Virus record (IMG/VR): IMGVR_UViG_2630968533_000004 | Source of the DNA: a virus | Taxonomy: Duplodnaviria > Heunggongvirae > Uroviricota > Caudoviricetes | Length of the DNA stretch: 47,366 nt | Reading direction: 5' to 3' (one strand) | In this document: piece after piece, positions 27,039 to 47,366 of the stretch | Layout: the number at the start of each line of letters is the position of its first letter | Position numbering within the stretch: position 1 is the first letter of the stretch | Made by a program: the position numbers and the translations under genes | Notes under the pieces: generated by a model | Database searches by the model: none | Told to the model about the DNA's origin: nothing | Seen by the model: only the letters and a program-made list of their open reading frames with translations

Positions 27039-27061
27039 ACGTCGCAGACAACAACTCTGAT

Positions 27062-27447: not shown

Positions 27448-27715
27448 TCCCTTTTCCCGGCTGGCAGCGCGTATGGATGCGATCACGGTCAGAAAGATGG
27501 GAAAGACAGCCTCGGTTAATGATGTCGATATGACTGTGATCCCGGGAGAAACACTGGCAGAGCTGAATGCTCTGTCCGGACCTGCGGTCTCTCTGGTGGT
27601 GTTTTCTTCGGGATACCGCCCACGGCGCGGGGATCGCGTTGTTTATGACGGACAACAATGGACGGTCACACGGCATGAACGCTTTAACGGTAAGCCAATG
27701 ATCTTTATTGAGTAA
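27440..27715 (+). CDS. Head-tail connector/adaptor protein
   Basis: 91-aa ORF in head-completion position. Confidence 0.55.
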   Translation: MSDPFSRLAARMDAITVRKMGKTASVNDVDMTVIPGETLAELNALSGPAVSLVVFSSGYRPRRGDRVVYDGQQWTVTRHERFNGKPMIFIE

Positions 27716-27726
27716 AGAGGTGTGGG

Positions 27727-28317: not shown

Positions 28318-28715
28318 ACCGACATACACAAATCCGCCAGGTCGTACTGGCACGCCTTCGGGAACAGTGTGGAGACAGCGCCACGTTTTTTGACGGGCTT
28401 CCGGCATTTATTGATGCGCAGGAACTGCCTGCCGTGGCGGTGTGGCTGAGTGATGCTCAGTACACCGGAAAAATGACGGATGAAGATGACTGGCAGGCTG
28501 TTCTGCATATTGCCGTCTTCATCCGGGCACAGGCACCGGATTCAGAGCTGGATATGTGGATGGAGAGCACCATTTTTCCTGCCCTGAATGATATACCGGC
28601 ACTTTCCGGACTCATCGACACCCTGATCCCACTCGGTTTTAACTATCAACGTGATAATGAGATGGCCACCTGGGCGATGGCGGAAATCACGTACCAGATC
28701 ACGTACACGAATTAA
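28302..28715 (+). CDS. Tail terminator (lambda gpU-like)
   Basis: ATFFDGLPAFIDAQELPAVAVWLSDAQYTG...DSELDMWMESTIFPALNDIPALS parallels recalled lambda U. Confidence 0.8.
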   Translation: MADPMNRHTQIRQVVLARLREQCGDSATFFDGLPAFIDAQELPAVAVWLSDAQYTGKMTDEDDWQAVLHIAVFIRAQAPDSELDMWMESTIFPALNDIPALSGLIDTLIPLGFNYQRDNEMATWAMAEITYQITYTN

Positions 28716-28725
28716 GGAGGTGGTA

Positions 28726-29469
28726 ATGACCACACCAAATCCACTGGCAAAGACGAAAGGTGCGGGGACGACGTTCTGGATGTATACCGGCAACGGCGAT
28801 GCGTTTGCGAATCCTTTGTCGGACACTGACTGGCTGCGTCTTGCGATGGTGAAGGATCTGCAACCTGGCGAAATGACCGCTGATGCAGAAGATGACACTT
28901 ATCTCGATGATGAAGATGCAGACTGGAAAACGACAACCCAGGGGCAGAAATCCGTTGGTGATACTTCGGCGACGCTGGCCTGGCGTCCGGGTGACAGCGG
29001 GCAGAAAAAACTGGTTCAGTTGTTCGACTCCGGTGAAGTCTGCGCGTTTCGTATCAAATATCCCAACGGTACTGTTGATGTTTTCCGTGGCTGGCTGAGT
29101 TCACTGGGTAAAACCATTGCCTCAAAAGACGTGATGACCCGCACAGTGAAAATCAGCGGTGTGGGGCGTCCGTATCTGGCAGAGGAAGGCACTGAAACAG
29201 TGAGCGTTACCGGGCTGACGGTGGCACCGGCATCTGCCAGTGTAAAAGTGGGAGCAACCACCACGCTGACCTTTACAGTAAAACCTGACGGAGCCAGTGA
29301 CAAAGCGATCAGTGTGCATTCGACAGATCCACAGACTGCCACGGTGACCCTGAACGGGCTTGTGGCCACGGTGAAAGGCGTGAAGCAGGGCAGTGTCAGC
29401 ATTGTGGGCATGACCGCTGACGGGAATTTTGTGGCTGTGGCTGCGGTGACTGTCAGCGCAGCAGGTTAA
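28726..29469 (+). CDS. Major tail protein (gpV-like) with C-terminal Ig-like domain
   Basis: AAGGAGG RBS then ATG 28726; C-terminal VTGLTVAPASASVKVGATTTLTFTVKPDGASDKAISVHSTDPQTATV is Big_2-like. Confidence 0.85.
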   Translation: MTTPNPLAKTKGAGTTFWMYTGNGDAFANPLSDTDWLRLAMVKDLQPGEMTADAEDDTYLDDEDADWKTTTQGQKSVGDTSATLAWRPGDSGQKKLVQLFDSGEVCAFRIKYPNGTVDVFRGWLSSLGKTIASKDVMTRTVKISGVGRPYLAEEGTETVSVTGLTVAPASASVKVGATTTLTFTVKPDGASDKAISVHSTDPQTATVTLNGLVATVKGVKQGSVSIVGMTADGNFVAVAAVTVSAAG

Positions 29470-29489
29470 CAGGACGATACTCATCATTT

Positions 29490-29513
29490 GCCCCGGTTAT
29501 TCGGGGCTTTTTT
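29490..29513 (+). terminator. Hairpin + T-tract after major tail gene
   Basis: GCCCCGGTTATTCGGGGC followed by TTTTTT. Confidence 0.55.
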
Positions 29514-29526
29514 ACAGGTGGAGAAC

Positions 29527-29916
29527 ATGATGTTTCTGAAACAGGACACGTTTAATTATGAAAAACAGTCCGTGGTGCTCAGTGAGCTGTCCGGGCTGCA
29601 GAGAATTGAATATCTGACGTTTGTTCAGCAGCGAACGGCAAAGTTTGATGCCGGGGAGGGAGAACTGCCGGAGGCTGAACGACAGATTGCTTTTCTGCGG
29701 ATGGGGATGGATATCAATGCCTGGCTGGTTTCCCGCTCACTGTGGAATGCGGAACAGTCTCAGGATGTTGAGACGCTTTACGCATCCGTTATTACAACAT
29801 GGTCGTATGATGCCCTGGGTGCGGGGGCGGAGATGGTTCTGTCGCTGAGCGGTATGGGGGCCATTGATAATGCCGGGGATTTGGAGCATGAGGTGCTGAC
29901 GCCGGAAAAGTCCTGA
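29527..29916 (+). CDS. Tail assembly chaperone (gpG-like)
   Basis: MMFLKQDTFNYEKQSVVLSELSGLQRIEYL parallels lambda G; GGTGGAG RBS. Confidence 0.8.
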   Translation: MMFLKQDTFNYEKQSVVLSELSGLQRIEYLTFVQQRTAKFDAGEGELPEAERQIAFLRMGMDINAWLVSRSLWNAEQSQDVETLYASVITTWSYDALGAGAEMVLSLSGMGAIDNAGDLEHEVLTPEKS

Positions 29917-30242
29917 CGCGGGAAATGCAGTTTGTCATGCGGCTTGCCCGGGAGTTCCGGCGGGCAGACTGGCGGCGGATGCTGTCGGAAATGTCGGCCA
30001 CTGAGCTTGGTGAGTGGGGCGATTATTTCCGGATGCAGAGCTTCAGTGATGTGTGGATGGATGCGCAGTTTGCCTCGCTGAAGGCATTGATCGTGAGAAT
30101 GGTGTCCGGCAGCAGTGATGCTGCGGTGGCTGATTTCAGCCTTTTACCGGAAGAGAACGGGATACCGGAGCGAACGGACGAAGAACTGATGCATCTTGGG
30201 GAAGGTATTTCCGGAGGTGTGCGTTATGGACCAGATAGCTAA
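29527..30242 (+). CDS. Tail assembly chaperone G-T fusion via -1 programmed frameshift
   Basis: -1 frame (ORF 29925..30242) is open from 29892 and overlaps the last 8 codons of G; shift window CCGGAAAAG at 29901..29909. Confidence 0.55.
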
Positions 30243-33200
30243 CCTGGTCATTGATTTGGGGATTGATGCGGCAGAGTTTAAAAATGAAATTCCCCGTATC
30301 AAAAACCTTCTGAATGGTGCAGCCAGCGATGCAGAACGGTCTTCTGCCCGTATGCAGCGTTTTATGGAGCGTCAGACTCAGGCCGCCCGGCAGACAACGC
30401 AGGCGGCGTCTTCGGCTGCAACAGCCGCATCCGTCCATGCGCAGACGGTGGAGAAGAACGCACAGGCTCATGAACGCATGGCCCGCGAGGTGGAGAAAAC
30501 CCGCCAGCGTATGGAGGCACTGAGCCAGAAAATACGCGAGGAACAGGCGCAGGCCATGGCTCTGGCGGAGGCTCAGGATAAAGCGGCTGCCGCGTTTTAT
30601 CGTCAGATTGACAGTGTGAAACAGGCCAGTGCGGGGCTGCAGGAATTACAGCGTATTCAGCAGCAGATCCGACAGGCCAGAAACAGTGGCGGGATTGGTC
30701 AGCAGGATTATCTGGCGCTGATTTCTGAGGTTACGGCGAAAACCCGTGTTCTTACACAGGCTGAGGAAGAGGCTACCCGACAGAAAGTGGCGTTTATCCG
30801 TCAGCTTAAAGAGCAGGCAACCCGCCAGAATCTTTCTTCTTCTGAGTTGCTTCGTGCCAGGGCTGCCCAGCTGGGGGTAAGCAGTGCTGCAGAAGTGTAT
30901 ATCCGCAAAATGGAGCAGGCAGGAAAAGCCACGCATTCGCTGGGTCTGAAAAGTGCAGCGGCCCGTCAGGAGATAGGCGTTCTGATAGGTGAACTGGCCC
31001 GCGGAAATTTAGGTGCGCTGAGGGGATCCGGAATAACGCTGGCTAACCGTGCCGGGTGGATAGACACACTGATGTCACCGAAAGGCATGATGCTTGGCGG
31101 GGTTATTGGTGGTATTGCCGCGGCTGTCTATGGTCTGGGTAAAGCCTGGTATGACGGTCAGAAGGAGGGGGAAGAATTTAACCGCCAGCTGTCGCTGACG
31201 GGGCATTATGCCGGAGTCACTGCCGGGCAGCTGTGGACGCTCAGTCGTGCTATTTCCGGGAATGGTATCACGCAACATGCTGCAGTCGGTGCGCTGGCTC
31301 AGGTGGTGGGGAGTGGTGCATTTCGTGGAAACGATATCAGTATGGTGGCGAGAGCTGCCGCACAGATGGAGCGATCGGTTGGCCAGTCGGTCAGCGATAC
31401 CATAAGTCAGTTTAAGCGGCTGAAGGATGATCCTGTAAATGCCGCGAAGGCTCTGGACAATGAGCTGCATTTTCTTACTGCCACTCAGCTTGAGCAGATA
31501 CGCGTCCTTGGGGAACAGGGGCGGTCCAGTGATGCGGCACGGATAGCCATGTCTGCACTGGCAGAGGAAACCGGTCGACGTACTGCGGATATTGATAATA
31601 ACCTCAATGCGCTGGGCAGTACGCTGAAGTATCTGTCTGATTTATGGAGTCGTTTCTGGGATGCGGCCATGAATATTGGTCGTGAAGATTCGCTGGATGC
31701 GCAGATTGCCACTTTGCAGGAGAAAGTGTCGCGGGCGAAAAGACTCCCCTGGACGGCATCATCTTCTCAGGTTGAATACGATCAGCAGCGTCTTAACGAT
31801 CTTCAGGAGAAAAAACGCCAGAAGGATTTGCAGGATGCAAAAGAGCAGGCAGAGCGGAATTATCAGGAGCAACAGAAACGCCGTAATGCTGAAAATGCTG
31901 CACTGAATCGGATGAATGAAACGGAAGCTGCACGACATCAGCGTGAAATTGCGCGTATTAATGCCATGCAGTACGCCGATCAGGCTGTCAGGGATGCGGC
32001 GATACAACGTGAAAATGAACGTTACGAGAAAGCCCTGGCATCCGGTAAGAAAAAAACACGCGAAACCCGTAATGATGAGGCCACCCGGTTATTGCTGCAG
32101 TACAGCCAGCAACAGGCACAGGTGGAAGGACAGATTGCTGCTGCAAGACAGTCAGCAGGCATTGCCACTGACAGGATGACAGAAGCGCATAAACAGCTTC
32201 TGGCTCTGCAGCAGCGCATCAGCGATCTGGACGGGAAAAAACTGACGGCAGATGAAAAGAGTGTGCTGGCCCGTAAAGATGAACTGATTCAGGCACTGAC
32301 GCTGCTGGATGTAAAACAGCAGGAGCTTCAGAAACAGACGGCACTCAACGATCTGAAGAAAAAAACAATTCAGCTGACCAGTCAACTGGCTGAAGAAGAG
32401 CGCGCTCAGCGTCAGCAACATGACCAGGATATCGCCACGGTGGGTATGGGTGATCAGCAGCGGCAGCGATATCAGGTACAACTGAGTCTTCGCCAGAAAT
32501 ACCAGCAACAGCTGGAGCAGTTGAGGCGGGATAGTGAGCAGAAAGGGACATATAACACGGATGACTACAGAAAGGCCGAGCAGGCGCTGACGGAGAGCCT
32601 GAACCGACAACTGAATGAGAATCGCCGTTACTGGCAACAGCTTGAAATTGCTCAGGGTAACTGGAAAAACGGAGTCCTGCGTGCATTTCAGGATTTTACC
32701 GTGGATGCAGATAATACGGCAGGAACAGCAGAACAGGTGTTCTCGTCAGCCTTCAGCAACATGGGAAATGGCCTGGCAACTTTTGTCACTACCGGCAAAC
32801 TCAATTTCAAATCCTTCACCTCTTCTGTGCTGTCAGATATGGCGAAAATCCTGGCGCAGGCAACCATGATGAAATCGATAAAAGGGATTGGCAGTGTACT
32901 GGGATTTGATCTCAGCAGCCTTTCCCTGAATGCCAATGGGGGGATTTATCAGTCTGCTGATTTGAGTCGTTACAGTGGCACGGTGGTTAACCGTCCGACG
33001 TTTTTTGCTTTTGCAAAAGGCGCGGGTGTGATGGGGGAAGCTGGACCTGAAGCCATTCTGCCACTGCGTCGTGGTGCTGACGGTAAGCTGGGGGTTGTGG
33101 CGGATATTGGTGGTTCAGGTATGGCGATGTTTGCCCCGCAGTACAACATCGAGATCAATAACGATGGCACGAACGGGCAGATAGGTCCGGCTGCCCTGAA

Positions 33201-33291
33201 GGTGGTTTATGACCTTGGGAAAAAAGCGGCAGCGGACTTTATGCAACAGCAGGCCCGTGATGGTGGTCGGTTAAGTGGAGCATATCGGTAA
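30226..33291 (+). CDS. Tape measure protein (gpH-like)
   Basis: 1021 aa, Ala/Gln-rich coiled-coil repeats, Gly-rich hydrophobic segment; GGAGGTG RBS. Confidence 0.9.
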   Translation: MDQIANLVIDLGIDAAEFKNEIPRIKNLLNGAASDAERSSARMQRFMERQTQAARQTTQAASSAATAASVHAQTVEKNAQAHERMAREVEKTRQRMEALSQKIREEQAQAMALAEAQDKAAAAFYRQIDSVKQASAGLQELQRIQQQIRQARNSGGIGQQDYLALISEVTAKTRVLTQAEEEATRQKVAFIRQLKEQATRQNLSSSELLRARAAQLGVSSAAEVYIRKMEQAGKATHSLGLKSAAARQEIGVLIGELARGNLGALRGSGITLANRAGWIDTLMSPKGMMLGGVIGGIAAAVYGLGKAWYDGQKEGEEFNRQLSLTGHYAGVTAGQLWTLSRAISGNGITQHAAVGALAQVVGSGAFRGNDISMVARAAAQMERSVGQSVSDTISQFKRLKDDPVNAAKALDNELHFLTATQLEQIRVLGEQGRSSDAARIAMSALAEETGRRTADIDNNLNALGSTLKYLSDLWSRFWDAAMNIGREDSLDAQIATLQEKVSRAKRLPWTASSSQVEYDQQRLNDLQEKKRQKDLQDAKEQAERNYQEQQKRRNAENAALNRMNETEAARHQREIARINAMQYADQAVRDAAIQRENERYEKALASGKKKTRETRNDEATRLLLQYSQQQAQVEGQIAAARQSAGIATDRMTEAHKQLLALQQRISDLDGKKLTADEKSVLARKDELIQALTLLDVKQQELQKQTALNDLKKKTIQLTSQLAEEERAQRQQHDQDIATVGMGDQQRQRYQVQLSLRQKYQQQLEQLRRDSEQKGTYNTDDYRKAEQALTESLNRQLNENRRYWQQLEIAQGNWKNGVLRAFQDFTVDADNTAGTAEQVFSSAFSNMGNGLATFVTTGKLNFKSFTSSVLSDMAKILAQATMMKSIKGIGSVLGFDLSSLSLNANGGIYQSADLSRYSGTVVNRPTFFAFAKGAGVMGEAGPEAILPLRRGADGKLGVVADIGGSGMAMFAPQYNIEINNDGTNGQIGPAALKVVYDLGKKAAADFMQQQARDGGRLSGAYR

Positions 33292-33620
33292 TGGAGACGT
33301 TTCACTGGAAAGTGCGCCCGGATATGAATGTGGTATCAGAGCCGAAAGTGGTGACAGTGAAGCTGGGCGATGGTTATGAACAGCGTCGTGCGGCGGGACT
33401 GAATAACCAGTTGTCGACTTACAGCGTGACGATACGTGTTCGTAAATGTGAACACCCATCTTTGAAAGCCTTTCTGGAACGGCACGGTGGCGTCCGCGCA
33501 TTTCAGTGGACGCCACCTTATGACTGGAAGCCGATCAGGGTGGTTTGTCGTAAATGGTCGGCAAGCGTGGGGGCGCTGTGGGTAACCATAACGGCAGATT
33601 TTGAACAGGTCGTGGCATAG
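33291..33620 (+). CDS. Minor tail protein (gpM-like)
   Basis: 109 aa; start overlaps tape-measure stop (TAATG). Confidence 0.85.
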   Translation: METFHWKVRPDMNVVSEPKVVTVKLGDGYEQRRAAGLNNQLSTYSVTIRVRKCEHPSLKAFLERHGGVRAFQWTPPYDWKPIRVVCRKWSASVGALWVTITADFEQVVA

Positions 33621-33629
33621 GAGGCCCTG

Positions 33630-34328
33630 ATGCAGGATATTCCACAGGAAACACATCATGAGACGACACGCCTCACTCAGTCAGCCCAGGTGGTGCTCTG
33701 GGAAATCGATCTGACAGAGGTCGGTGGTGAACGTTATTTTTTCTGTAATGAGCAGAACGAAAAAGGTGAGCCGGTCACCTGGCAGGGGCGGCAGTATCAG
33801 GCATACCCCATTCAGGGGACGGGATTTGAACTGAACGGTAAGGGCAGTGCTGCCCGTCCGACACTGACGGTCTCTAACCTGCACGGCATGGTCACCGGGA
33901 TGGCGGAAGACCTGCAGAGTCTGGTCGGCGGAACGGTGGTCAGGCGTAAGGTTTACGCCCGTTTTCTGGATGCGGTGAACTTCGTCAACGGAAACAGCGA
34001 CGCCGATCCGGAGCAGGAGGTGATCAGCCGCTGGCGCATCGAGCAGTGCAGCGAACTGAGTGCGGTGAGTGCCTCCTTTGTACTGTCCACACCGACGGAA
34101 ACGGATGGTGCCGTTTTTCCGGGGCGCATCATGCTGGCTAATACCTGCACCTGGACCTATCGCGGTGATGAGTGCGGTTATCACGGTCCGGCTGTCGCGG
34201 ATGAATATGATCAGCCGACGTCCGATATCACGAAGGATAAATGCAGCAAATGCCTGAATGGCTGTAAGTTTCGCAATAACGTCGGCAACTTTGGCGGCTT
34301 CCTTTCCATTAACAAACTTTCGCAGTAA
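33630..34328 (+). CDS. Minor tail protein (gpL-like)
   Basis: 232 aa with C-terminal Cys cluster CTWTYRGDECGYHG...CSKCLNGCKF as in lambda L. Confidence 0.85.
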   Translation: MQDIPQETHHETTRLTQSAQVVLWEIDLTEVGGERYFFCNEQNEKGEPVTWQGRQYQAYPIQGTGFELNGKGSAARPTLTVSNLHGMVTGMAEDLQSLVGGTVVRRKVYARFLDAVNFVNGNSDADPEQEVISRWRIEQCSELSAVSASFVLSTPTETDGAVFPGRIMLANTCTWTYRGDECGYHGPAVADEYDQPTSDITKDKCSKCLNGCKFRNNVGNFGGFLSINKLSQ

Positions 34329-34333
34329 ATCCC

Positions 34334-35077
34334 ATGACAGAGACAGAATCAGCGATTCTGGCGCACGCCCGGCGATGTGCGCCAGCGGAGTCGTGCGGCT
34401 TCGTGGTGAGAACGCCGGAAGGGGAAAGATATTTTCCCTGCGTGAATATCTCCGGTGAGCCGGAGGCGTATTTCCGGATGTCGCCGGAGGACTGGCTGCA
34501 GGCAGAGATGCAGGGTGAGATTGTGGCACTGGTCCACAGTCATCCCGGTGGTCTGCCCTGGCTGAGTGAGGCTGACCGGCGGCTGCAGGTGCAGAGTGAT
34601 TTGCCGTGGTGGCTGGTCTGCCGGGGGGCGATTCACAAGTTCCGCTGTGTGCCGTATCTCACCGGGCGGCGCTTTGAGCACGGGGTGACGGACTGTTACA
34701 CGCTGTTCCGGGATGCTTACCATCTGGCGGGGATTGAGATGCCGGATTTTCATCGCGAGGATGACTGGTGGCGTCACGGTCAGAATCTCTATCTGGATAA
34801 TCTGGAGGCCACAGGGCTGTATCAGGTGCCGTTGTCAGCGGCGCAGCCGGGCGATGTGCTGCTGTGCTGTTTTGGTTCATCGGTGCCGAATCATGCCGCC
34901 ATTTACTGTGGTGACGGCGAGCTGCTGCACCATATTCCTGAACAACTGAGCAAACGAGAGAGGTATACCGACAAATGGCAGCGACGCACACACTCCCTCT
35001 GGCGTCACCGGGCATGGCACGCATCTGCCTTTACGGGGATTTACAACGATTTGGCCGCCGCATCGACCTTCGTGTGA
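34334..35077 (+). CDS. Tail tip assembly protein (gpK-like; JAB/MPN + NlpC/P60 domains)
   Basis: JAMM motif E...VHSHPGG...SEAD and NlpC/P60-like Cys-His region (DCYTLF...HAAIY). Confidence 0.85.
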   Translation: MTETESAILAHARRCAPAESCGFVVRTPEGERYFPCVNISGEPEAYFRMSPEDWLQAEMQGEIVALVHSHPGGLPWLSEADRRLQVQSDLPWWLVCRGAIHKFRCVPYLTGRRFEHGVTDCYTLFRDAYHLAGIEMPDFHREDDWWRHGQNLYLDNLEATGLYQVPLSAAQPGDVLLCCFGSSVPNHAAIYCGDGELLHHIPEQLSKRERYTDKWQRRTHSLWRHRAWHASAFTGIYNDLAAASTFV

Positions 35078-35622
35078 AAACGGGGGCTGAAGCCATCCGG
35101 GCGCTGGCCACACAGCTTCCGTCGTTTCGCCAGAAACTGAATGAGGGCTGGTATCAGGTGCGCATTTCCGGGCGTGATGCAGGCGAAAATGAATTATCTG
35201 CCCGTCTTAATGAACCGCTGGCAAATGGTGCCGTGATCCACGTCGTTCCGCGTCTGGCGGGTGCCAAAAGTGGCGGTGTGTTTCAGGCGGTGCTGGGTGC
35301 GGCGCTGATTGCGGTGGCATGGTGGAACCCTGTTGGCTGGCTGGGGGCCGCGGCTGTATCGGGTCTGTATGCAGCAGGGGCCAGTATGATCCTGGGTGGT
35401 GTGGCGCAGATGCTGGCACCGAAAGCCAGGACGCCCACGGCAGCCAGTACAGATAACGGCAAACAGAACACCTATTTCTCGTCACTGGATAACATGGTTG
35501 CCCAGGGCAATGTTCTGCCGGTTCTGTACGGTGAAATGCGCGTGGGGTCACGCGTGGTTTCTCAGGAGATCAGCACGGCAGACGAAGGGGATGGTGGTCA
35601 GGTTGTGGTGATTGGTCGCTGA
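34975..35622 (+). CDS. Tail tip assembly protein (gpI-like)
   Basis: MAATHTLPLASPGMARICLYGDLQRFGRR... essentially the recalled lambda I N-terminus; overlaps 3' end of K ORF. Confidence 0.8.
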   Translation: MAATHTLPLASPGMARICLYGDLQRFGRRIDLRVKTGAEAIRALATQLPSFRQKLNEGWYQVRISGRDAGENELSARLNEPLANGAVIHVVPRLAGAKSGGVFQAVLGAALIAVAWWNPVGWLGAAAVSGLYAAGASMILGGVAQMLAPKARTPTAASTDNGKQNTYFSSLDNMVAQGNVLPVLYGEMRVGSRVVSQEISTADEGDGGQVVVIGR

Positions 35623-35682
35623 TGCAAAATGTTTTATGTGAAACCGCCTCCGGGCGGTTTTATCGTTTATGGAGCATGACGA

Positions 35683-38600
35683 ATGGGTAAAGGCAGCAGT
35701 AAGGGGCATACCCCGCGCGAAGCGAAGGACAACCTGAAGTCCACGCAGCTGCTGAGTGTGATCGATGCCATCAGCGAAGGGCCGGTTGAAGGTCCGGTGG
35801 ATAGATTAAAAAGCGTGCTGCTGAACAGTACGCCGGTGCTGGACAGTGAGGGGAATACCAATATATCCGGCGTCACGGTGGTGTTCCGTGCCGGTGAGCA
35901 GGAGCAGACACCGCCGGAGGGGTTTGAATCCTCCGGCTCCGAGACGGTGCTCGGTACAGAAGTGAAATATGACACTCCGATCACCCGGACCATCACGTCG
36001 GCAAACATTGACCGTCTGCGTTTTACTTTCGGCGTGCAGGCACTGGTGGAAACCACCTCAAAGGGGGACAGGAATCCATCGGAAGTCCGCCTGCTGGTTC
36101 AGATACAACGTAACGGTGGCTGGGTGACGGAAAAAGACATCACCATTAAGGGTAAAACCACTTCACAGTATCTGGCCTCGGTGGTGGTGGATAACCTGCC
36201 GCCGCGCCCGTTTAATATCCGGATGCGCAGGATGACGCCGGACAGCACCACAGACCAGCTGCAGAACAAAACGCTCTGGTCGTCATACACCGAAATTATC
36301 GATGTGAAACAGTGCTACCCGAACACGGCACTGGTCGGCGTGCAGGTGGATTCGGAGCAGTTCGGCAGCCAGCAGGTGAGCCGTAATTATCATCTTCGCG
36401 GGCGCATTCTGCAGGTGCCGTCGAACTATAACCCGCAGACGCGGCAATACAGCGGTATCTGGGACGGAACGTTTAAACCGGCATACAGCAACAACATGGC
36501 CTGGTGTCTGTGGGATATGCTGACCCATCCGCGCTACGGCATGGGGAAACGTCTTGGTGCGGCGGATGTGGATAAATGGGCGCTGTATGTCATCGGCCAG
36601 AATTGCGACCAGTCGGTGCCGGATGGCTTTGGTGGCACGGAGCCGCGCATCACCTGTAATGCCTGGCTGACCACACAGCGTAAGGCGTGGGATGTTCTCA
36701 GTGATTTCTGCTCGGCGATGCGCTGTATGCCGGTATGGAACGGGCAGACGCTGACGTTCGTGCAGGACCGACCGTCGGATAAGGTGTGGACCTATAACCG
36801 CAGTAATGTGGTGATGCCGGATGATGGCGCGCCGTTCCGCTACAGCTTCAGCGCCCTGAAAGACCGCCATAATGCCGTTGAGGTGAACTGGATTGACCCG
36901 GATAACGGCTGGGAGACGGCAACAGAGCTTGTGGAGGACACGCAGGCCATTGCCCGTTACGGTCGTAACGTCACGAAGATGGATGCTTTTGGCTGTACCA
37001 GCCGGGGGCAGGCACACCGCGCCGGGCTGTGGCTGATTAAAACAGAACTGCTGGAAACGCAGACCGTGGACTTCAGCGTGGGTGCCGAAGGGCTTCGCCA
37101 TGTGCCGGGTGATGTTATTGAAATCTGCGATGATGACTATGCGGGGATCAGCATCGGCGGGCGCGTGCTGGCTGTGAACAGCCAGACCCGGACGCTGACG
37201 CTCGACCGTGAAATCACGCTGCCATCCTCCGGTACCACGCTGATAAGCCTTGTTGACGGTCAGGGTAATCCGGTCAGCGTGGAGGTCCAGTCCGTCACCG
37301 ACGGCGTGAAGGTGAAAGTGAGCCGTGTTCCTGACGGCGTTGCTGAATACAGCGTGTGGGGGCTGAAGCTGCCGACGCTGCGCCAGCGCCTGTTCCGCTG
37401 CGTGAGTATCCGTGAGAACGACGACGGCACGTATGCCATCACCGCCGTGCAGCATGTACCGGAAAAAGAGGCCATCGTGGATAACGGGGCGCACTTTGAC
37501 GGCGACCAGAGCGGCACGGTGAATGGTGTCACGCCGCCAGCGGTGCAGCACCTGACCGCCGAAGTCACCGCAGACAGCGGGGAATATCAGGTGCTGGCGC
37601 GCTGGGACACGCCGAAGGTGGTGAAGGGCGTGAGTTTCCTGCTTCGCCTGACCGTGGCAGCGGATGACGGCAGTGAGCTGCTGGTCAGCACGGCCCGGAC
37701 GGCGGAAACCACATACCGCTTCAGGCAACTGGCGCTGGGGAACTACAGGCTGACAGTCCGGGCGGTAAATGCGTGGGGGCAGCAGGGCGATCCGGCGTCG
37801 GTATCGTTCCGGATTGCCGCACCGGCAGCACCGTCGAGGATTAAGCTGACGCCGGGCTATTTTCAGATAACCGCCACGCCGCATCTTGCGGTTTATGATC
37901 CGACGGTACAGTTTGAGTTCTGGTTCTCGGAAAAGCGGATTGCGGATATCAGGCAGGTTGAAACCACAGCCCGCTATCTTGGCACGGCGCTGTACTGGAT
38001 AGCTGCCAGTATCAATATCAAGCCGGGCCATGATTATTATTTTTACATCCGCAGTGTGAACACCGTTGGCAAATCGGCATTCGTGGAGGCTGTTGGCCAG
38101 CCGAGTGATGATGCATCCGGCTATCTGGATTTTTTCAAAGGAGAGATAGGGAAAACCCATCTGGCTCAGGAGTTGTGGACGCAGATTGATAACGGTCAGC
38201 TTGCGCCTGACCTGGCGGAAATCAGAACGTCCATCACGGATGTCAGTAATGAAATCACGCAGACCGTCAATAAGAAACTGGAAGACCAGAGTGCAGCGAT
38301 CCAGCAGATACAGAAGGTTCAGGTTGATACAAATAATAACCTGAACAGCATGTGGGCTGTGAAGCTGCAGCAGATGCAGGACGGACGCCTTTATATCGCG
38401 GGTATTGGTGCCGGTATTGAAAACACCCCTGACGGCATGCAGAGTCAGGTGCTGCTGGCGGCAGACAGGATTGCGATGATTAATCCTGCGAATGGCAACA
38501 CAAAGCCGATGTTTGTTGGTCAGGGCGATCAGATATTTATGAATGAAGTGTTCCTGAAATATCTGACGGCTCCCACCATTACCAGCGGCGGTAATCCTCC

Positions 38601-39887: not shown

Positions 39888-42266
39888 GTGGATATGGCAG
39901 CAGTAAAAATCTCAGGTGTGCTGAAAGATGGTGCGGGAAAACCAATACAGAACTGCACTATTCAACTGAGGGCAAAGCGTAACAGCACCACGGTACTGGT
40001 GAACACGGTGGCTTCTGAAAATCCGGATGAAGCCGGACGTTACAGCATGGATGTTGAGTATGGCCAGTACAGCGTCACCCTGCTGGTTGAAGGTTTTCCG
40101 CCTTCACATGCCGGGACCATTACCGTCTATGAAGGCTCCAGACCAGGTACGCTGAATGATTTTCTCGGTGCCATGACGGAAGATGATGTCATGCCGGAGG
40201 CATTGCGTCGTTTTGAGGCAATGGTGGAAGAAGTGGCACGCAACGCCGAAGCCGCCTCTCAGAGCGCAGCGGCGGCAAAGAAATCCGAAACTGCAGCGGC
40301 ATCATCAAAGAACGCGGCGAAAACCTCAGAAACGAATGCAGCTAATAGTGCACAGGCGGCAGCGGCCTCACAGACTGCATCGGCAAACTCCGCGACAGCA
40401 GCCAAAAAATCAGAAACCAACGCGAAAAATAGCGAGACAGCCGCAAAGACGAGCGAAACCAACGCAAAGTCCAGCCAGACGGCAGCGAAAACCAGCGAAA
40501 CGAATGCCAAAGCCAGTGAAACTGCGGCAAAAAACAGCCAGGTTGCAGCAGCCCAAAGCGAGAGCGCGGCAGCCGGTTCTGCGACTTCAGCAGCCGGATC
40601 AGCAACTGCTGCGGCTAACAGCCAGAAAGCTGCGAAGACGAGTGAAACTAACGCAAAGTCCAGCCAGACGGCAGCGAAGACCAGCGAAACGAATGCCAAA
40701 GCCAGCGAAACTGCGGCGAAAAACAGCCAGGATGCAGCAGCCGAAAGCGAGAGTGTTGCAGCTGGTTCTGCAAGCGCGGCGGCTGCTTCTGCCACTGCAT
40801 CAGCTAACAGTCAAAAAGCAGCAAAAACCAGTGAAACCAACGCAAAGACAAGCGAGACTGCGGCAGCTAACTCGGCGAAAGCATCCGCTGCAAGCCAGAC
40901 AGCGGCTAAAGCAAGTGAAGATGCAGCCAGGGAGTACGCAAGCCAGGCAGCTGAGCCGTATAAACAAGTTTTGCAGCCACTGCCTGATGTGTGGATACCG
41001 TTTAATGACTCGATGGATATGATTGCAGGATTTGGCCCGGGATATAAAAAAATAACAGTGCGCGATGATGTGGTCACTATACCATCCGACAAAATTGTCC
41101 CGTTTTCCCGCGCGAGTTCCGCGACCTATATCAATAAGTCCGGCGCTCTTACCATTGCAGAAATTAATGAGCCACGTTTTGAAAAAGAAGGGCTGTTAAT
41201 TGAAGGGCAGAGAACTAACTATCTAAAAAATTCTAATACACCGGAATTGTGGTACTACCACAGTTTACTGGCGAAAGAGTATGGGGTTGATAATTACGGT
41301 TTTAATTATGCAACCGTCACCGTGACAGACAGTCTTGTAGGCACAACCAGTAGTTATCAGATTCATAGTGTAACTGGAGAGAACAGGTTTTCTCTGTCCA
41401 TCGGTGAAACCTGCACTTTTTCTGCCCGCTTTCGTGGAGTTAATTCACGTTGTCGCGTCCATATATCTCTTGTTATTGGCGAAAATGTTAAAACATCCGT
41501 TGATGTATGTCTGGAGCCAGATACAGGTGAGGTTAAGGCGTACGGTAATAAGGCGCTGGTGACATTCAGAACGGAAAAACAGGGGGACTGGTGTTACTTT
41601 GAAACAACATATACCGCCGCAGAGAATATTGACGAAGTGGTATGCGGTTTTTTTATAACCAATCCTGAAGATGGTGGTTTTTCTTCTGATTCGTCATTAA
41701 CAATGACTACGCCGCAAATTGAAAAAGGGCCATGCGCTTCATCGTTTATTATTTCCGGAAACACACCAACCACGCGCGCCAGTGATATGGTTATTTTTTC
41801 AACCAGAAATAACATAAGTTCTGTCCCTTTAAGCTGTCTTGTTGAAATACATAAAAATTGGGACTCTACGCCAAATCAGGCCCCACGAATTTTAACCACT
41901 ATTGGCGTGGCGACTAATGATGAACAACTGGTATTGGCTTTCAGGACGCCTACAAGTCCGGATGTAGAACCTTTACCTTATGTTCAGTTTGGAGTGAGAT
42001 CTGCATATCTTAGTCCATCTGTGAAGGCCGGGCGCAAAATGATTGCTGGTTTTGTCTGTAATAGCTCGACTGAATTTCGTTGCTGTTGTAATGGTTACCT
42101 GTCACCTGTTCAGACTTCGTCATGGAAGAATACCGGAGCTGCACATGAAATACGTATTGGGGGAACTTCTGCTGGAGGAGAACGTCACTTGTTTGGTCAC
42201 GTTCGTAACCTGAGAATATGGCATAAAGAATTAACTGATGCGCAAATGGGGGAGTCAGTAGAATGA
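39888..42266 (+). CDS. stf: Side tail fibre protein (Stf-like) with Ala/Ser/Thr-rich repeats and distinct C-terminal domain
   Basis: N-terminus AVKISGVLKDGAGKPIQNCTIQLRAKRNSTTV... is lambda-Stf-like; central SETNAK/AAKTSE repeats; C-terminal third is AT-richer with no lambda-like sequence. Confidence 0.85.
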   Translation: MDMAAVKISGVLKDGAGKPIQNCTIQLRAKRNSTTVLVNTVASENPDEAGRYSMDVEYGQYSVTLLVEGFPPSHAGTITVYEGSRPGTLNDFLGAMTEDDVMPEALRRFEAMVEEVARNAEAASQSAAAAKKSETAAASSKNAAKTSETNAANSAQAAAASQTASANSATAAKKSETNAKNSETAAKTSETNAKSSQTAAKTSETNAKASETAAKNSQVAAAQSESAAAGSATSAAGSATAAANSQKAAKTSETNAKSSQTAAKTSETNAKASETAAKNSQDAAAESESVAAGSASAAAASATASANSQKAAKTSETNAKTSETAAANSAKASAASQTAAKASEDAAREYASQAAEPYKQVLQPLPDVWIPFNDSMDMIAGFGPGYKKITVRDDVVTIPSDKIVPFSRASSATYINKSGALTIAEINEPRFEKEGLLIEGQRTNYLKNSNTPELWYYHSLLAKEYGVDNYGFNYATVTVTDSLVGTTSSYQIHSVTGENRFSLSIGETCTFSARFRGVNSRCRVHISLVIGENVKTSVDVCLEPDTGEVKAYGNKALVTFRTEKQGDWCYFETTYTAAENIDEVVCGFFITNPEDGGFSSDSSLTMTTPQIEKGPCASSFIISGNTPTTRASDMVIFSTRNNISSVPLSCLVEIHKNWDSTPNQAPRILTTIGVATNDEQLVLAFRTPTSPDVEPLPYVQFGVRSAYLSPSVKAGRKMIAGFVCNSSTEFRCCCNGYLSPVQTSSWKNTGAAHEIRIGGTSAGGERHLFGHVRNLRIWHKELTDAQMGESVE
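40440..40820. repeat. Tandem direct repeat (about 2 x 189 bp) inside stf
   Basis: Block starting near 40443 (gcaaagacgagcgaaaccaacgcaaagtccagccagacggcagcgaa...) recurs near 40632 with a few substitutions. Confidence 0.6.
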
Positions 42267-42541
42267 AAGATTTTACGCTGAAGTTTCGAGATCGGGAAGG
42301 CTATAAAGCATTCTTGAATGAAATTAATTGGGAAGATAATGAAGTATTGCAAGATCAACTCCTGATTGATGAAATTGGATTCGCTTTCGATGAAGTCGGC
42401 AGAAATGCCGACGACGAACCAATTTATCAACGACGCGACGGTTATTTTGTAAATATTAGAATCTTAGATGAAAAGCTGGACGCATCACCATTTACCGGAA
42501 ATGTAGTGATTCTTGATGCTCCTCTTCGTGAATGGGCTTGA
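42263..42541 (+). CDS. Hypothetical small acidic protein in tail-fibre locus
   Basis: 92-aa ORF; start overlaps stf stop; AT-rich. Confidence 0.45.
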   Translation: MKDFTLKFRDREGYKAFLNEINWEDNEVLQDQLLIDEIGFAFDEVGRNADDEPIYQRRDGYFVNIRILDEKLDASPFTGNVVILDAPLREWA

Positions 42542-42551
42542 GGGGTAATAT

Positions 42552-43592
42552 ATGGCGAACTTAACAGTAATTCCTGATGACATCAAAACGCTAAAATCCG
42601 ACGTTAGCAAATTAAAAAAAGATCAAGGAAGCTACGCAACAAAATCATATGTAGACAATAAAACAACATGGAATGGTTATTGCAATGTAATCTATGATCA
42701 AAAGACATTGCCGACCACTGGAACTATATTTAGCGGTAAGATTCACTTGTCAAATAAGACAGGAGAAACCGAAAACGCTTATGGTGAGATGTACACCAGA
42801 AAAAATATTGACGGTACAAAAGATACAATGACAAGGATTGTCACACACAATGGAACAAAAGGTATCTTTTGGGATTTTAGCGATCTTTACGGTGGAACAT
42901 TAATTTTTCCAGGCAGTGATGGTTACCTTAAGATGGGGAACTGTCTCATGTCGTATGGTGTGCGGGGAAGTAACGCGCTTATTAAGTTTGACTGCACAGA
43001 CACATTACAAATCAAATATGCTAATCATGGGTCAACCATGACAATAAACACACAAGGAACCGCTCACGCTGGCGTTACTGCTAGCTTGTGGGGCAACTCT
43101 AGCCGTCCGGTTGTATATGAAGTTGGTGCTGATGGTGGCGCGTATATGTTCTATGCGCAGAAACATACCGATAACACCTATATGTTAAGCGTTAATGGTG
43201 CATGTCATGCCACCGCATTTAACCAGCATTCCGACCGGGATCTGAAAGACAACATTCAGGTGATCGATAATGCAACCGACCGCATCCGTAAAATGAACGG
43301 CTATACATACACTCTTAAAGAAAATGGCATACCTTACGCTGGTGTTATCGCGCAAGAAGCACTAGAAGCAATCCCAGAAGTTGTAGGCTCTGCAATGAAA
43401 TATCAGGATGGTGGAAGCGGGTCGAAAGGTGAAGAAGGTGAACGTTATTACACAGTAGATTATTCTGGTGTTACTGGCTTGCTTGTTCAGGTAGCCAGAG
43501 AGTCAGACGACAGAATAACAGCACTGGAAGAAGAAAACGCAGAATTAAGACAAAGATTATCTGCAATTGAGGTGGCGCTTGCGTCTAAATAA
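42552..43592 (+). CDS. Tail fibre / tailspike-like protein with C-terminal intramolecular chaperone (peptidase S74) domain
   Basis: C-terminus SDRDLKDNIQVIDNATDRIRKMNGYTYTLKENGIPYAGVIAQEALEAIPEVV...YYTVDYSGVTGLLVQVARESDDRITALEEENAELRQRL fits the endosialidase-chaperone pattern. Confidence 0.7.
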   Translation: MANLTVIPDDIKTLKSDVSKLKKDQGSYATKSYVDNKTTWNGYCNVIYDQKTLPTTGTIFSGKIHLSNKTGETENAYGEMYTRKNIDGTKDTMTRIVTHNGTKGIFWDFSDLYGGTLIFPGSDGYLKMGNCLMSYGVRGSNALIKFDCTDTLQIKYANHGSTMTINTQGTAHAGVTASLWGNSSRPVVYEVGADGGAYMFYAQKHTDNTYMLSVNGACHATAFNQHSDRDLKDNIQVIDNATDRIRKMNGYTYTLKENGIPYAGVIAQEALEAIPEVVGSAMKYQDGGSGSKGEEGERYYTVDYSGVTGLLVQVARESDDRITALEEENAELRQRLSAIEVALASK

Positions 43593-43598
43593 TATTAA

Positions 43599-43619
43599 GG
43601 GGCCGAGCGCCCCGTTTTA
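43599..43619 (+). terminator. Hairpin + T-tract after fibre gene
   Basis: GGGGCCGAGCGCCCC then GTTTTATT. Confidence 0.5.
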
Positions 43620-43628
43620 TTGGGTGGG

Positions 43629-43928
43629 ATGAAAATGGATATAACACCTTTCCTTCATGCACTTTGTGCTGTGGCTGCGCAGGTACTGGTTGGCCTTTTT
43701 ACCGGAAACTGGGTTTACGGTGCGATAGCCGGTTGTACGTTCTTCATTGCGCGTGAACACACCCAGGCAGAATATCGCTGGATTGAAATGTTCGGGCATG
43801 GCAAGCGAATGAATATGCCGTGGTGGGGCGGTTTTGATCTACGCGCGTGGGATGTAGCAAGCCTGATGGATTTTGCTGTGCCGGTGGTGGCGTGTCTGCT
43901 GGTCTGGCTGTTGGTTAATCGTGTGTGA
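43629..43928 (+). CDS. Small membrane protein (two predicted TM helices)
   Basis: Hydrophobic segments ALCAVAAQVLVGLF and FAVPVVACLLVWLLV; start ambiguous (TTG 43620, ATG 43629 or 43635). Confidence 0.5.
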   Translation: MKMDITPFLHALCAVAAQVLVGLFTGNWVYGAIAGCTFFIAREHTQAEYRWIEMFGHGKRMNMPWWGGFDLRAWDVASLMDFAVPVVACLLVWLLVNRV

Positions 43929-44155
43929 AAAAAGGTGAGCTGTATATGCAACGGAGGAAGAAACCCCGTTGCTGGAAGCATGGAAAAAGTATCGGGTATT
44001 GCTGAACCGTGTTGATACGTCAACTGCACAGGATATTGAATGGCCAGCACTGCCGTAGGGTAAAACATATAAATTCTATAATTAGATGTATCTTTCCATT
44101 TACGGCAAGGAAGGGGGCTTGGAAGACGTAAAGCATCTCACACCGAGATTATTTT

Positions 44156-44746
44156 TTATATGTCAGGTGTCTGAAGTTTTGCTTTGGCTCTTAAAATGGT
44201 TTGCCGCGAGGTTTTGAATTCCCGGGCAATGGCACTTATACTTACACCTGACTTAATTCGTTCGAATACCACCTGTTTCTGTTCTTCATTTAACACAGGT
44301 GGTCGACCAAAACGTTTCCCTGCGCCGCGGGCTCTTACTATCCCGGAATGAGTGCGTTCAAGTAAAAGGTCTCGTTCAAATTCAGCGACTGCTGAAATTA
44401 CTTGCATCATCATTTTTCCTGTTGGACTGGTCAGGTCAATGCCACCCAATGCTAAGCAATGCACTCTGATACCTGTTTCGGTCAGTTGTTCCACTGTTTT
44501 CCTGATATCCATTGCATTACAACCAAGGCGATCCAGTTTTGTCACAATCAATTGATCACCACATTTCAGGCGAGCAAGCAACCGGTTAAAACCAGGACGC
44601 TCACTGGTTGCTGCTGAGCCGCTAATGTGTTCTTCGATTATTTGCTGAGGTTTGATTTTAAAACCTGCACTTTCGATTTCCCGGCGTTGATTTTCGGTGG
44701 TCTGATCCAGCGTTGATATCCGACAGTAAGCAAAAATTCGAGACAT
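44156..44746 (-). CDS. pin: Serine recombinase, DNA invertase (Pin/Gin/Hin family)
   Basis: 196 aa; N-terminal catalytic region [16 protein letters not shown] (Ser nucleophile) and C-terminal HTH; matches Pin-family invertases. Confidence 0.9.
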
Positions 44747-45062
44747 AGTGAGACTCTATACGAAATTGGTGTTCATATCATAATGCATCTCAGAAAATAA
44801 TTATGATTATTTTTGTGCATATTTGTATGTACACGTTCGAAAATAAACGAATGCGTATGCAACCCCGTAATTTTGGTGAGACCCAAAATCGATTTTGTGA
44901 AAAAAGGCTTTAACTCGGTTTGTTTTTCGAGTTCCGGGCGGACTCAAGGAAGAAGAATAGTGTTGCGTGTTATTTTAACCAGATTTCAAGTTGTTTGGTC
45001 GTGGAAAAGTGGAGCAAAATGTTGTTAAAGTGGAAAAATGATAAAAAAGTAAGTTTATTATA

Positions 45063-45296
45063 TTACATTTTACCATTTAAATTTTGGTTGTCTTTAAGAA
45101 CTGATATCGCTGTTTGTAATAATTCTTTGTTATCCAGCCATGATTTTTTCTTTATGTTTCCTTCAATGTAATCAAGCAATGTTCTGGTATTGATAGGTCT
45201 TCCCTGTTTTGCTACTTCCACTACAGCATCCCCTAGGATAATTCTTACTTCAGGAAGCTGCGCAGGGAACCACTTTAGGGTGTCTTTTGATTTCAT
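45063..45296 (-). CDS. YdfK/YnaE-like small prophage protein
   Basis: Internal Met gives 77 aa MKSKDTLKWFPAQLPEVRIILGDAVV...; position next to pin as in Qin. Confidence 0.5.
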   Translation of the reverse strand: MKSKDTLKWFPAQLPEVRIILGDAVVEVAKQGRPINTRTLLDYIEGNIKKKSWLDNKELLQTAISVLKDNQNLNGKM

Positions 45297-46082
45297 GAAG
45301 ATATTCCTTAAAATATTATTGATTTTCATTGCGATATTGTATGTCTGATTCAGGATATGTTGACTTATACATCGGTTTTGTCTGGGTTATTGGATATGCC
45401 AATCCCTAATTTTATTAGGGCATGACTAAAAATGCTGAATATGATAAGGAGAGATGTGATTATCAGTATGCTGTTCATATAGCCTCGAATTAGTAATGTG
45501 TTATATATGATATAGTTGACAATTTTTATCTTGGGTGTTCTTAAAGTTCGTAGATAAACATTGTCGTTTCAGGTATACAGGAATGCTAACAGGTGGCAGC
45601 AAAAATCAGGCGGTTTATGGCGCAAGCTGAAGCGGCAACTGTAAACTATCTTATGCAGAGACTCTACACGGATTGGGTTTAAAAGTATACATAGATAACA
45701 GTTTTTATCTGAAAAAGAAAAATATCAAGGTGATATAGCCTATATGCCTTTGATGCGGAGGAATGAATGTGATGGGAGTGATGTATCTGAATAGTTGAAA
45801 AACCGCAGACACGCCTTATGCAAGAACGTGCTGCGGTTGGCTGGTAAATTTTTCGATAGTGTGAGTATTGAATGATTTCCAGCCGTTCTTGATTTTACGC
45901 ATAAATCCATGAAAAAACTACTTATCTGTTGGGGAGTTTTTTTTGGGGCATATATGGGACAGAAATAGGCCCCAGATAGACACTGAGATCGAACTTAGGA
46001 TGCTTTTTAAAAAATGCAACTATCTGAAAAAACCTAGAAAACGCCAAGGAAACCACAGGATGGGAAAAAACACCTGTGAATT

Positions 46083-47366
46083 ATGGATTTCCAGTTATAT
46101 TCGCTCGGCGCAGCGTTAGTGTTTCATGAAATATTTTTTCCTGAATCATCAACGGCAATGGCGTTAATTCTGGCAATGGGAACCTACGGTGCAGGTTATG
46201 TGGCGCGTATTGTCGGAGCATTTATTTTCGGCAAAATGGGCGACAGAATAGGGCGTAAAAAAGTACTCTTTATTACCATCACCATGATGGGGATCTGTAC
46301 CACCTTAATTGGTGTGTTACCGACCTATGCACAGATTGGTGTTTTTGCACCCATCTTGCTGGTGACGCTGCGTATTATTCAGGGATTGGGTGCAGGTGCG
46401 GAAATTTCCGGTGCCGGTACGATGCTGGCGGAATATGCGCCAAAAGGTAAGCGCGGAATTATCTCCTCATTTGTTGCTATGGGGACTAACTGCGGAACCT
46501 TGAGCGCAACGGCAATCTGGGCCTTTATGTTCTTCATTCTCAGTAAAGAGGAACTGTTGGCGTGGGGATGGCGTATACCGTTCCTGGCGAGCGTTGTCGT
46601 GATGGTCTTTGCTATCTGGTTGCGTATGAATCTGAAAGAAAGCCCGGTCTTTGAGAAGGTTAACGACAGCAATCAACCGACAGCAAAACCTGCACCTGCT
46701 GGTAGCATGTTCCAGAGCAAATCCTTCTGGCTGGCAACAGGGCTGCGTTTTGGTCAGGCTGGTAACTCAGGTTTAATTCAGACTTTCCTTGCAGGCTATT
46801 TAGTGCAGACGTTATTGTTTAACAAAGCAATTCCAACAGATGCATTGATGATCAGTTCGATTCTCGGCTTTATGACCATTCCGTTCCTTGGTTGGTTATC
46901 CGATAAAATAGGTCGCCGGATCCCGTATATTATTATGAATACCTCTGCGATTGTGCTGGCGTGGCCAATGCTTTCTATCATCGTAGATAAAAGCTATGCC
47001 CCGAGCACCATTATGGTTGCACTGATTGTGATTCATAACTGTGCGGTGCTGGGATTATTTGCTCTGGAAAACATTACCATGGCAGAAATGTTCGGCTGTA
47101 AAAACCGCTTTACCCGGATGGCTATTTCTAAAGAAATTGGTGGTCTTATCGCTTCCGGTTTTGGTCCTATCCTGGCGGGTATTTTCTGCACCATGACGGA
47201 ATCCTGGTATCCGATCGCCATTATGATCATGGCATATTCAGTGATTGGTTTAATCTCTGCGCTGAAAATGCCAGAAGTGAAAGACCGTGATTTAAGTGCA
47301 CTGGAAGATGCCGCGGAAGATCAACCGCGTGTTGTAACAGCAGCGCAACCTTCAAGAAGTCTGTAA
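46083..47366 (+). CDS. ydfJ: MFS transporter (metabolite:H+ symporter family), host gene at prophage boundary
   Basis: 427 aa, multiple TM helices, MFS motif GKMGDRIGRKK; N-terminus begins inside the conserved first-helix region, so the gene appears 5'-truncated; an upstream out-of-frame MGKNTCELWISSYIRSAQR* reading suggests disruption. Confidence 0.8.
   Translation: MDFQLYSLGAALVFHEIFFPESSTAMALILAMGTYGAGYVARIVGAFIFGKMGDRIGRKKVLFITITMMGICTTLIGVLPTYAQIGVFAPILLVTLRIIQGLGAGAEISGAGTMLAEYAPKGKRGIISSFVAMGTNCGTLSATAIWAFMFFILSKEELLAWGWRIPFLASVVVMVFAIWLRMNLKESPVFEKVNDSNQPTAKPAPAGSMFQSKSFWLATGLRFGQAGNSGLIQTFLAGYLVQTLLFNKAIPTDALMISSILGFMTIPFLGWLSDKIGRRIPYIIMNTSAIVLAWPMLSIIVDKSYAPSTIMVALIVIHNCAVLGLFALENITMAEMFGCKNRFTRMAISKEIGGLIASGFGPILAGIFCTMTESWYPIAIMIMAYSVIGLISALKMPEVKDRDLSALEDAAEDQPRVVTAAQPSRSL

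Follow-up and report, generated by a model that had tools for sequence, protein, structure and literature searches.

The 47,366-nucleotide stretch of DNA analyzed here (IMG/VR virus record IMGVR_UViG_2630968533_000004; the window) ends, on its right side, in the Escherichia coli transporter gene ydfJ. We are highly confident that positions 45300-46091 hold the right end and the right attachment site (attR) of a 46.1-kb lambdoid prophage of the Qin/PPydfJ family, and the end of the prophage can be placed to a single base, 46091. A first-pass annotation had put attR within 45300-46085. The boundary that it recognized is real; however, the crossover core at 46081-46091 straddles the right limit of that interval, and 45300-46080 is phage DNA throughout.

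The crossover core is an 11-bp sequence within ydfJ

Four attachment sites were compared: attR in the window, attL in E. coli strain 1428, attP in the free phage mEp460_ev081 (LR597641.1; ev081), and attB in genomes in which the site is empty. The core was sought by aligning the DNA left of the integrase gene in strain 1428 with window positions 45201-46300, a comparison of the kind proposed in the first-pass annotation, and this alignment returned the 11-bp direct repeat TTATGGATTTC. In the four-way alignment, the partner of identity switches exactly at both ends of this sequence, which occupies 46081-46091 in the window. The copies are identical in attL (L003, strain 1428, 1958-1968), attP (L005, ev081, 24761-24771), and attB (L004, an empty-site genome, 1858-1868). 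To the left of the attR core, 800 of 800 bp are those of the ev081 attP, and to its right 1275 of 1275 bp are those of attB. At attL the arrangement is reciprocal, with attB on the left (300/300 bp) and the ev081 attP on the right (336/336 bp). The attL core belongs to the 5' stub that remains of ydfJ; it precedes the int stop codon by 36 bp and window position 1 by 36-46 bp, in agreement with the expectation that attL would be found beyond the left edge of the window. The core comprises codons 28-31 of the host ydfJ, among them codon 29 (Met29), the ATG at 46083. In line with this, the annotation of the K-12 Qin prophage (1632277-1652745) begins at the base equivalent to window position 46091, and ynfP of K-12 is an orphan 5' piece beside rspB.

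An empty site rebuilt from the left side of attL, the core, and the right side of attR (777 nt) is present at 100% identity and in one piece in at least 18 of the complete genomes listed as matches. This rebuilt site, the predicted product of precise excision, is exactly the natural uninterrupted ydfJ allele. Among 5426 complete E. coli genomes, approximately 2010 have the uninterrupted empty site and approximately 1986 carry the identical junction; from 45000 onward, the window is 100% identical in dozens of complete genomes.

Some points weigh against this reading. The 11-bp repeat is not significant on its own (local E-value, 0.08), and a spurious 11-mer of the same length occurred in the comparison that yielded it. 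The junction was therefore accepted because of the exact four-way breakpoints and the rebuilt empty site, found at 100% in real genomes, and not because of the repeat alone. In addition, PMC8112680 describes ydfJ as a common phage integration site and gives 18-19 bp for the att of PPydfJ, whereas perfect identity extends over 11 bp in the present alignment; this discrepancy is probably explained by the imperfectly matching flanks, GAAT(T) and NAG.

Integration truncates the host gene ydfJ

46083-47366, plus strand: ydfJ', host MHS-family transporter of the major facilitator superfamily (MFS), 427 residues, lacking codons 1-28 (the N terminus and the start of the first transmembrane helix) and reaching the last base of the window.

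The proposal that the right prophage boundary falls at a 5'-truncated MFS gene is upheld by this open reading frame (ORF), by the annotation of the gene elsewhere, and by the empty sites counted above. Uninterrupted ydfJ in the empty-site genomes is 1368 nt long and encodes 455 residues; the ORF in the window lacks the first 28 of these 455 codons, MTIEKHERSTKDLVKAAVSGWLGTALEF, so the comparison leaves no intact N terminus. RefSeq/PGAP flags ydfJ in a near-identical genome as "incomplete; missing N-terminus." The ydfJ' ORF scores 453.5 bits against TIGR00883 (cutoff, 443.45) with an alignment that starts at profile position 7, and the rebuilt full-length YdfJ scores 462.9 bits and covers profile positions 1-400. 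The gene in the window is thus a phage-truncated pseudogene rather than a short allele. The same outcome has been described for Qin, whose site-specific integration at the 5' end of ydfJ causes promoter loss and a 28-codon N-terminal truncation; in that study, prophages of 11-97 kb occupied the ydfJ site in 48% of 638 strains (PMC6379469).

In an empty-site genome (L004, 1-3777), rspA, rspB, ydfJ, and ydfI are co-oriented, with gaps beside ydfJ of 57 bp on the rspB side and 89 bp on the other, which suggests one operon of four genes for sugar-acid utilization, interrupted by the prophage. Two codons before the ATG at 46083 there is an in-frame TGA, no Shine-Dalgarno-like sequence is visible at a normal distance from it, and no promoter-like site was found on the plus strand between 45400 and 46083. 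We consider it very improbable that the prophage acts as a reversible switch on this operon ("active lysogeny"), silencing or truncating the transporter on integration and giving back the wild-type allele on excision, or that a Met29-initiated YdfJ' is still made from read-through transcription and is functional. What speaks for the switch is the precision of the junctions.

Integrase, excisionase, and attachment-site arms

2-1282, minus strand: tyrosine integrase (Int) of the IntQ type, 426 residues, with the Pfam domains Arm-DNA-bind_2 and Phage_integrase; 99.8% identical to ev081 Int.
24-43, plus strand: two tandem candidate arm-type sites, TGGGGCATG and TGGGGCAAA, in the P' arm within the 3' end of int; conserved in the Stx2a phage record LC727846.1 (L009).
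1317-1568, minus strand: excisionase (Xis; DUF1233), Pfam PF06806 (E = 1.6e-31), 100% identical to that of ev081 and adjoining int.
45841-45943, no strand assigned: linker between the cargo shared with the Rac prophage and the P arm; Rac homology stops at 45840.
45944-46080, plus strand: conserved P arm of attP and attR, specific to the ydfJ-type integrase; diverged prophages of enterohemorrhagic E. coli (EHEC) align from here to the core.
45944-45952, plus strand: candidate arm-type Int site TGGGGCATA, marking the exact start of P-arm conservation.
45966-45974, minus strand: weaker candidate arm-type site TGGGGCCTA, inverted and less conserved in the EHEC arms.

Both domains expected of a lambda-like integrase are present in Int. 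The N-terminal domain matches PF12167 (Arm-DNA-bind_2; 84.4 bits, residues 4-67) and the catalytic domain matches PF00589 (E = 3.8e-18). Alignment to the Tn1549 integrase locates the Arg, Lys, Arg, His, and Tyr motifs as TGVRPGE, PKTQAG, SRHT, MGH, and QVYGKW, with the first His of the box being Tyr. Window positions 1-1161 are 99.05% identical to the intQ pseudogene of K-12, and the gene is full length here.

The extent of the P arm is defined by EHEC prophages at ydfJ (L007 and L008), which carry dinI and nleC as cargo. Their alignment with the window starts exactly at TGGGGCATATATGGGACA (45944) and continues through the core into ydfJ; the conserved P arm therefore measures approximately 140 bp. 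Copies of a TGGGGCA motif, which was picked post hoc, stand at 45944, 45966, 24, and 35. Of nine near-matches to it in the 47-kb window, these four lie together, each no more than 150 bp from the core when the map is drawn as a circle (a span of approximately 300 bp). The exact sequence TGGGGCAT occurs twice in the window against 2.05 occurrences expected by chance, so that position alone is suggestive. We regard the copies as candidates for arm-type Int sites.

A core-like sequence, TGAATGATTTCCAG, lies in the linker at 45872-45885, 200 bp to the left of the true core. It resembles the attB sequence TGAATTTATGGATTTCCAG and aligns with the true core in the Stx2a phage record. In that record, at 1450-1825, a block homologous to window positions 45817-45868 directly adjoins the true core, beyond which come the P' arm and 278 bp from the int 3' end. 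This arrangement may have been left by integration, or by recombination, at a secondary site that lay within another prophage.

Collectively, these features suggest a likely lambda-like, site-specific recombination by Int and Xis, of which the substrates and products are seen at base resolution and the protein binding and directionality are predicted. In the lysogen, the core (46081-46091) joins the P arm (approximately 45944-46080) to the remainder of ydfJ at attR, and at attL it stands between codons 1-28 of ydfJ and the P' arm, which extends into the 3' end of int. Integration cuts the 28 N-terminal codons from ydfJ and parts ydfJ-ydfI from the upstream rspAB. Int, with its arm-binding and catalytic domains, would bridge the candidate arm-type sites and the core, and precise excision, presumably directed by the DUF1233 excisionase as in lambda, would recreate the exact allele of prophage-free genomes. 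It counts against the overall reading that the arm-type sites, the activity of Int and Xis, and the role of the terminator considered below are predictions.

Cargo and a terminator-like hairpin at the right end

44156-44746, minus strand: pinQ serine invertase, with Pfam Resolvase and HTH_7 domains; 100% identical to ev081 Pin.
45063-45296, minus strand: ydfK, phage cargo, annotated in RefSeq as cold shock protein YdfK; 100% identical to the ev081 coding sequence.
45365-45478, minus strand: ynfT, phage cargo, a 37-residue small protein of the YnaM/YnfT family (NCBIfam NF041477; 63.9 bits, cutoff 35), annotated in L001 and in strain 1428 (L003).
45801-45838, minus strand: intrinsic-terminator-like hairpin, a 13-bp stem followed by UUUUUC, found by eye and by folding.

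Positions 43947-45840 are 99.2% identical to the right arm of the K-12 Rac prophage (tfaR tail, pinR, ynaE, and ynaM), and the homology then stops. Because the Rac homology runs through to 45840, 45300-45840 is assigned, by sequence comparison, to mobile accessory cargo (ydfK, ynfT, and the region upstream of them) and not to att. The true att module (45944-46091) is in this way separated from the cargo shared with Rac. Approximately 600 bp between ynfT and the ydfJ' ORF contain no annotated gene.

The hairpin at 45801-45838 has a folding energy of -20.7 kcal/mol (z = -4.19), and none of 200 shuffled sequences was as stable. Once the phage is circular, the hairpin is positioned downstream of int, on the far side of attP, and in the prophage it is upstream of ynfT and ydfK; many lambdoid phages (HK97, phi80, and Stx phages) have the block that contains it conserved beside their att regions. 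By analogy with lambda, the hairpin would end int transcripts of the circular phage beyond attP, at the position of lambda tI/sib. Scans of 44700-46400 for sigma-70 promoter and terminator consensus sequences returned 7 and 1 matches, against 6.1 and 1.2 in shuffled sequence, and missed the hairpin. Rfam gave no match at the gathering threshold in 44700-46300. At E <= 1, it returned a CssrB-like match at 45698-45835 (plus strand; 25 bits against a gathering score of 76), which overlaps the hairpin, and a spurious microRNA, and no family is claimed for either.

Inverted repeats around pin were limited to weak pairs of 14-22 nt with 73-88% identity, and no invertible segment is claimed. The pinQ gene looks like an orphan invertase. 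PinR, which is 99% identical, reportedly acts in trans on the P segment of e14, according to a 2025 preprint.

The prophage is intact at the level of gene content

1-46091, no strand assigned: prophage body, part of a 46,127-bp element that starts 35 bp to the left of the window.
1-8704: 99.94% identical to ev081.
10385-20686: 99.92% identical to ev081.
20728-27995: 99.7% identical to ev081.
28162-38148: 97% identical to ev081.
43947-46091: 99.86% identical to ev081.
40247-44055: replacement fiber module, encoding a 792-residue Stf, a 92-residue ORF, a 346-residue fiber with a Peptidase_S74 chaperone domain, and a 102-residue ORF.
4756-4807, 10705-10879, 14242-14491, 15191-15381, and 18479-18896: Rfam matches above the gathering threshold, namely the DicF small RNA (76.7 bits), the sok antitoxin RNA beside hokD, a pair of tRNAs that follow Q and are annotated as Ile and Arg in strain 1428, the STnc100 small RNA, and a cspA-type thermoregulator in the 5' untranslated region before cspI.

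The whole window is 99.985% identical to a segment of the E. coli strain 1428 chromosome (NZ_CP023366.1, 2388504-2435868), with six substitutions and one indel. The gene order is int-xis-exo-dicB/dicF-immunity-replication-hok/sok-Q-tRNAs-lysis-cspI/gnsB-cos-head-tail-stf-pin-ydfK-ynfT-P arm, and the window is colinear with the isolated temperate coliphage ev081, at 97-99.9% identity over most of its length. When 50 coding sequences of ev081 were tested, 47 were full length and free of stop codons in the window; the exceptions were Stf, which is replaced, Tfa, of which a remnant is left, and T, which has lost its last four residues. The genes for Int, Xis, the repressor, Cro, replication, Q, lysis, terminase, portal, and capsid are intact. 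Proteins of the DicB, DicA, and DicC types are 100% identical to those of ev081, and the annotation of strain 1428 includes dicB and ydfD. RefSeq flags in the strain 1428 prophage are confined to small items: the tfa fragment, which is the only one marked as a pseudogene, one ORF called "too short," and a hypothetical ORF that is short and partial. At least 80% of the late region of the window is present in 442 genomes.

An accessory slot between the replication genes and hok/sok (8705-10384) is swapped relative to ev081. The window has a 340-residue ORF there (8780-9802), and ev081 has an unrelated 449-residue ORF on the other strand that has no counterpart in the window. Neither the 340-residue ORF nor the 102-residue ORF of the fiber module gave a Pfam or PADLOC match. 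The 792-residue Stf contains internal repeats approximately 189 bp apart (40428-40858).

These findings bear out the earlier view that the element is a full-length prophage and not a remnant of approximately 20 kb like Qin, and its intactness at the level of gene content is well supported by the sequence comparisons. The prophage is probably still functional, given that it is colinear with an isolated temperate coliphage and for the most part more than 97-99.9% identical to that phage. The ydfJ N terminus and the essential phage genes were the two places in which the first-pass annotation could have been contradicted; the former is not intact, and in the latter no inactivating mutation is established, the change in T amounting to a trim of four residues.

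Alternative readings of the prophage

The alternative that survives best, although we consider it unlikely, is that all gene modules are present and the prophage is nonetheless defective, producing no infectious particles as a result of the T trim and the altered G-T fusion, the rearrangement of the tail fibers, or lesions invisible in the sequence. Two observations on the tail genes argue for this and count against a functional prophage. The first is a lineage-specific nonsense change in T (29925-30242), where a C-to-T substitution at 30240 creates a TAA four codons early relative to ev081 and removes QPGH from T and from the G-T fusion. Of the 17 deposited phages with the surrounding 141-nt T/H stretch, none matches at 100%, and all presumably lack this TAA; the best nine of the 17 each match at 140/141, and the single mismatch in these nine presumably is site 30240, the base being confirmed in ev081 alone. 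A 50-nt megablast query across the T stop codon found no match, probably because the mismatch leaves no exact 28-base word on either side. No essential gene carries any other candidate lesion, and the change is synonymous in the overlapping gene H (start, 30226). The second is the replacement of the side-tail-fiber module, including Stf, which has left only the last 36 codons of tfa (43948-44055). The identical prophage is also fixed in many genomes of what seems to be one clonal group, as under vertical inheritance. Against a defective prophage, the loss of four C-terminal residues is a mild change, all other coding sequences are full length, most of them 98-100% identical to those of a phage that plates, and the genes from Int to capsid named above are intact. 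The replacement fiber module occurs at approximately 90% identity in the isolated phages ev243, PhiR49_2, and IdasGreatGrand. Side tail fibers (Stf/Tfa) are dispensable for lambda in the laboratory.

Somewhat less probable still is a history without recent integration of this phage, in which an old Qin-type resident kept its att ends as scars, not as a working pair, and incoming lambdoid phages, recombining homologously with it, rebuilt its interior. The ends of the window (1-1161 and 43947-47366), which the first-pass annotation had matched to K-12 Qin by gene content, are indeed 99% identical to it, against mosaic internal matches of 92-98%. The near-identity of the right arm (43947-45840) to Rac shows free exchange of modules, and recombination and replacement among prophages at ydfJ have been reported (PMC9997748). 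However, both arms are base-for-base those of a free-phage attP over 800 and 336 bp, and the genes for Int and Xis are intact. The pair of att sites is therefore indistinguishable from that of a fresh, excisable integration, and the history of the element and its present function are separate questions.

The suggestion that attR lies inside 45300-46085 with a frameshifted 5' remnant of ydfJ just upstream of the ORF can practically be dismissed: a 58-residue ORF (45943-46119) does overlap the start of ydfJ' in another frame, but the DNA there upstream of the core is 100% phage P arm, the 28 missing residues (tblastn) and their 82 nt (blastn-short) give chance matches only across the whole window, and the true 5' fragment sits beside rspB at attL. 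The out-of-frame upstream transporter fragment described in the first-pass annotation thus does not stand, and the 58-residue ORF was rejected as a ydfJ fragment in favor of a chance ORF across the junction.

Comparison with known systems

The site-specifically integrated prophage described here shares with K-12 Qin the integration site, the position of the core, the type of integrase (99% over 1161 nt, corresponding to intQ), and a right arm that is 99% identical from the tfaQ tail through pinQ, ydfK, ynfT, and the P arm into ydfJ. The interior matches Qin in segments only; dicB/dicF, hokD, rem, ydfU, the lysis cassette, cspI, and gnsB are common to both. In contrast, K-12 Qin is a 20.5-kb remnant in which intQ is broken by IS2 and which lacks xis and the replication, head, and tail genes. 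It also carries the relBE, cspB/cspF, and flxA insertions. The element in the window has all modules in 46.1 kb.

Another close likeness is that to ev081, one of the coliphages isolated from infant feces (PMC10910852) and a functional temperate phage with dicB, dicF, dicA/C, and rem (PMC10448788). The two are colinear over the whole genome, their attP arms are identical, and the early, lysis, and head regions are 99.7-99.9% identical, with tail genes at approximately 97%. They differ in the swapped slot at 8705-10384, in the C terminus of J and in Lom, which have diverged (82-85% amino acid identity), in the replacement of Stf/Tfa, and in T, which is four residues shorter in the window. The ev081 record itself appears to contain, at 45629-45865 near its right end, a repeat of approximately 98 bp; in a comparison with window positions 20589-20727, 20589-20686 aligned to two consecutive stretches of it. 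This repeat is probably an artifact of assembly or of terminal redundancy in that record and not a feature of the window.

EHEC prophages of the PPydfJ type (O26:H11 11368, O157:H7, and others; Nakamura et al. 2021, PMC8112680) use the same attB and core and have a P arm of approximately 140 bp that is 80-87% identical to the one described here. They differ in having type III secretion system effector loci (nleC and nleG) and dinI beside the P arm, not pin-ydfK-ynfT, and they often occur in tandem clusters with integrases inactivated by insertion sequences. Rac, whose attR lies in ttcA, shares the right-arm cargo and 360 bp beyond it; unlike the element in the window, it has another integrase, another P arm, and another host target, and the homology ends 240 bp before the core.

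The order of J-side cargo, P arm, core, P' arm, int, and xis is that of lambda, as are the separate arm-binding domain of Int and the position of a putative terminator hairpin beyond attP, downstream of int; the arm sites are candidates, and control of the sib kind would likewise be a prediction. Unlike in lambda, the N-terminal domain of Int is of the Arm-DNA-bind_2 type, Xis belongs to DUF1233, and integration takes place within a coding sequence, not between genes, and thereby truncates a gene. The truncation of YdfJ by 28 codons through Qin and the existence of ev081 as a functional Qin-like phage are both established in the literature. The window is therefore one more sequenced copy of a known junction, and its significance lies mainly in correct annotation. 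The element is also probably a live relative of the K-12 Qin remnant, useful for studying dicBF and DicA-Rem regulation in a functional phage, as was the point of PMC10448788.

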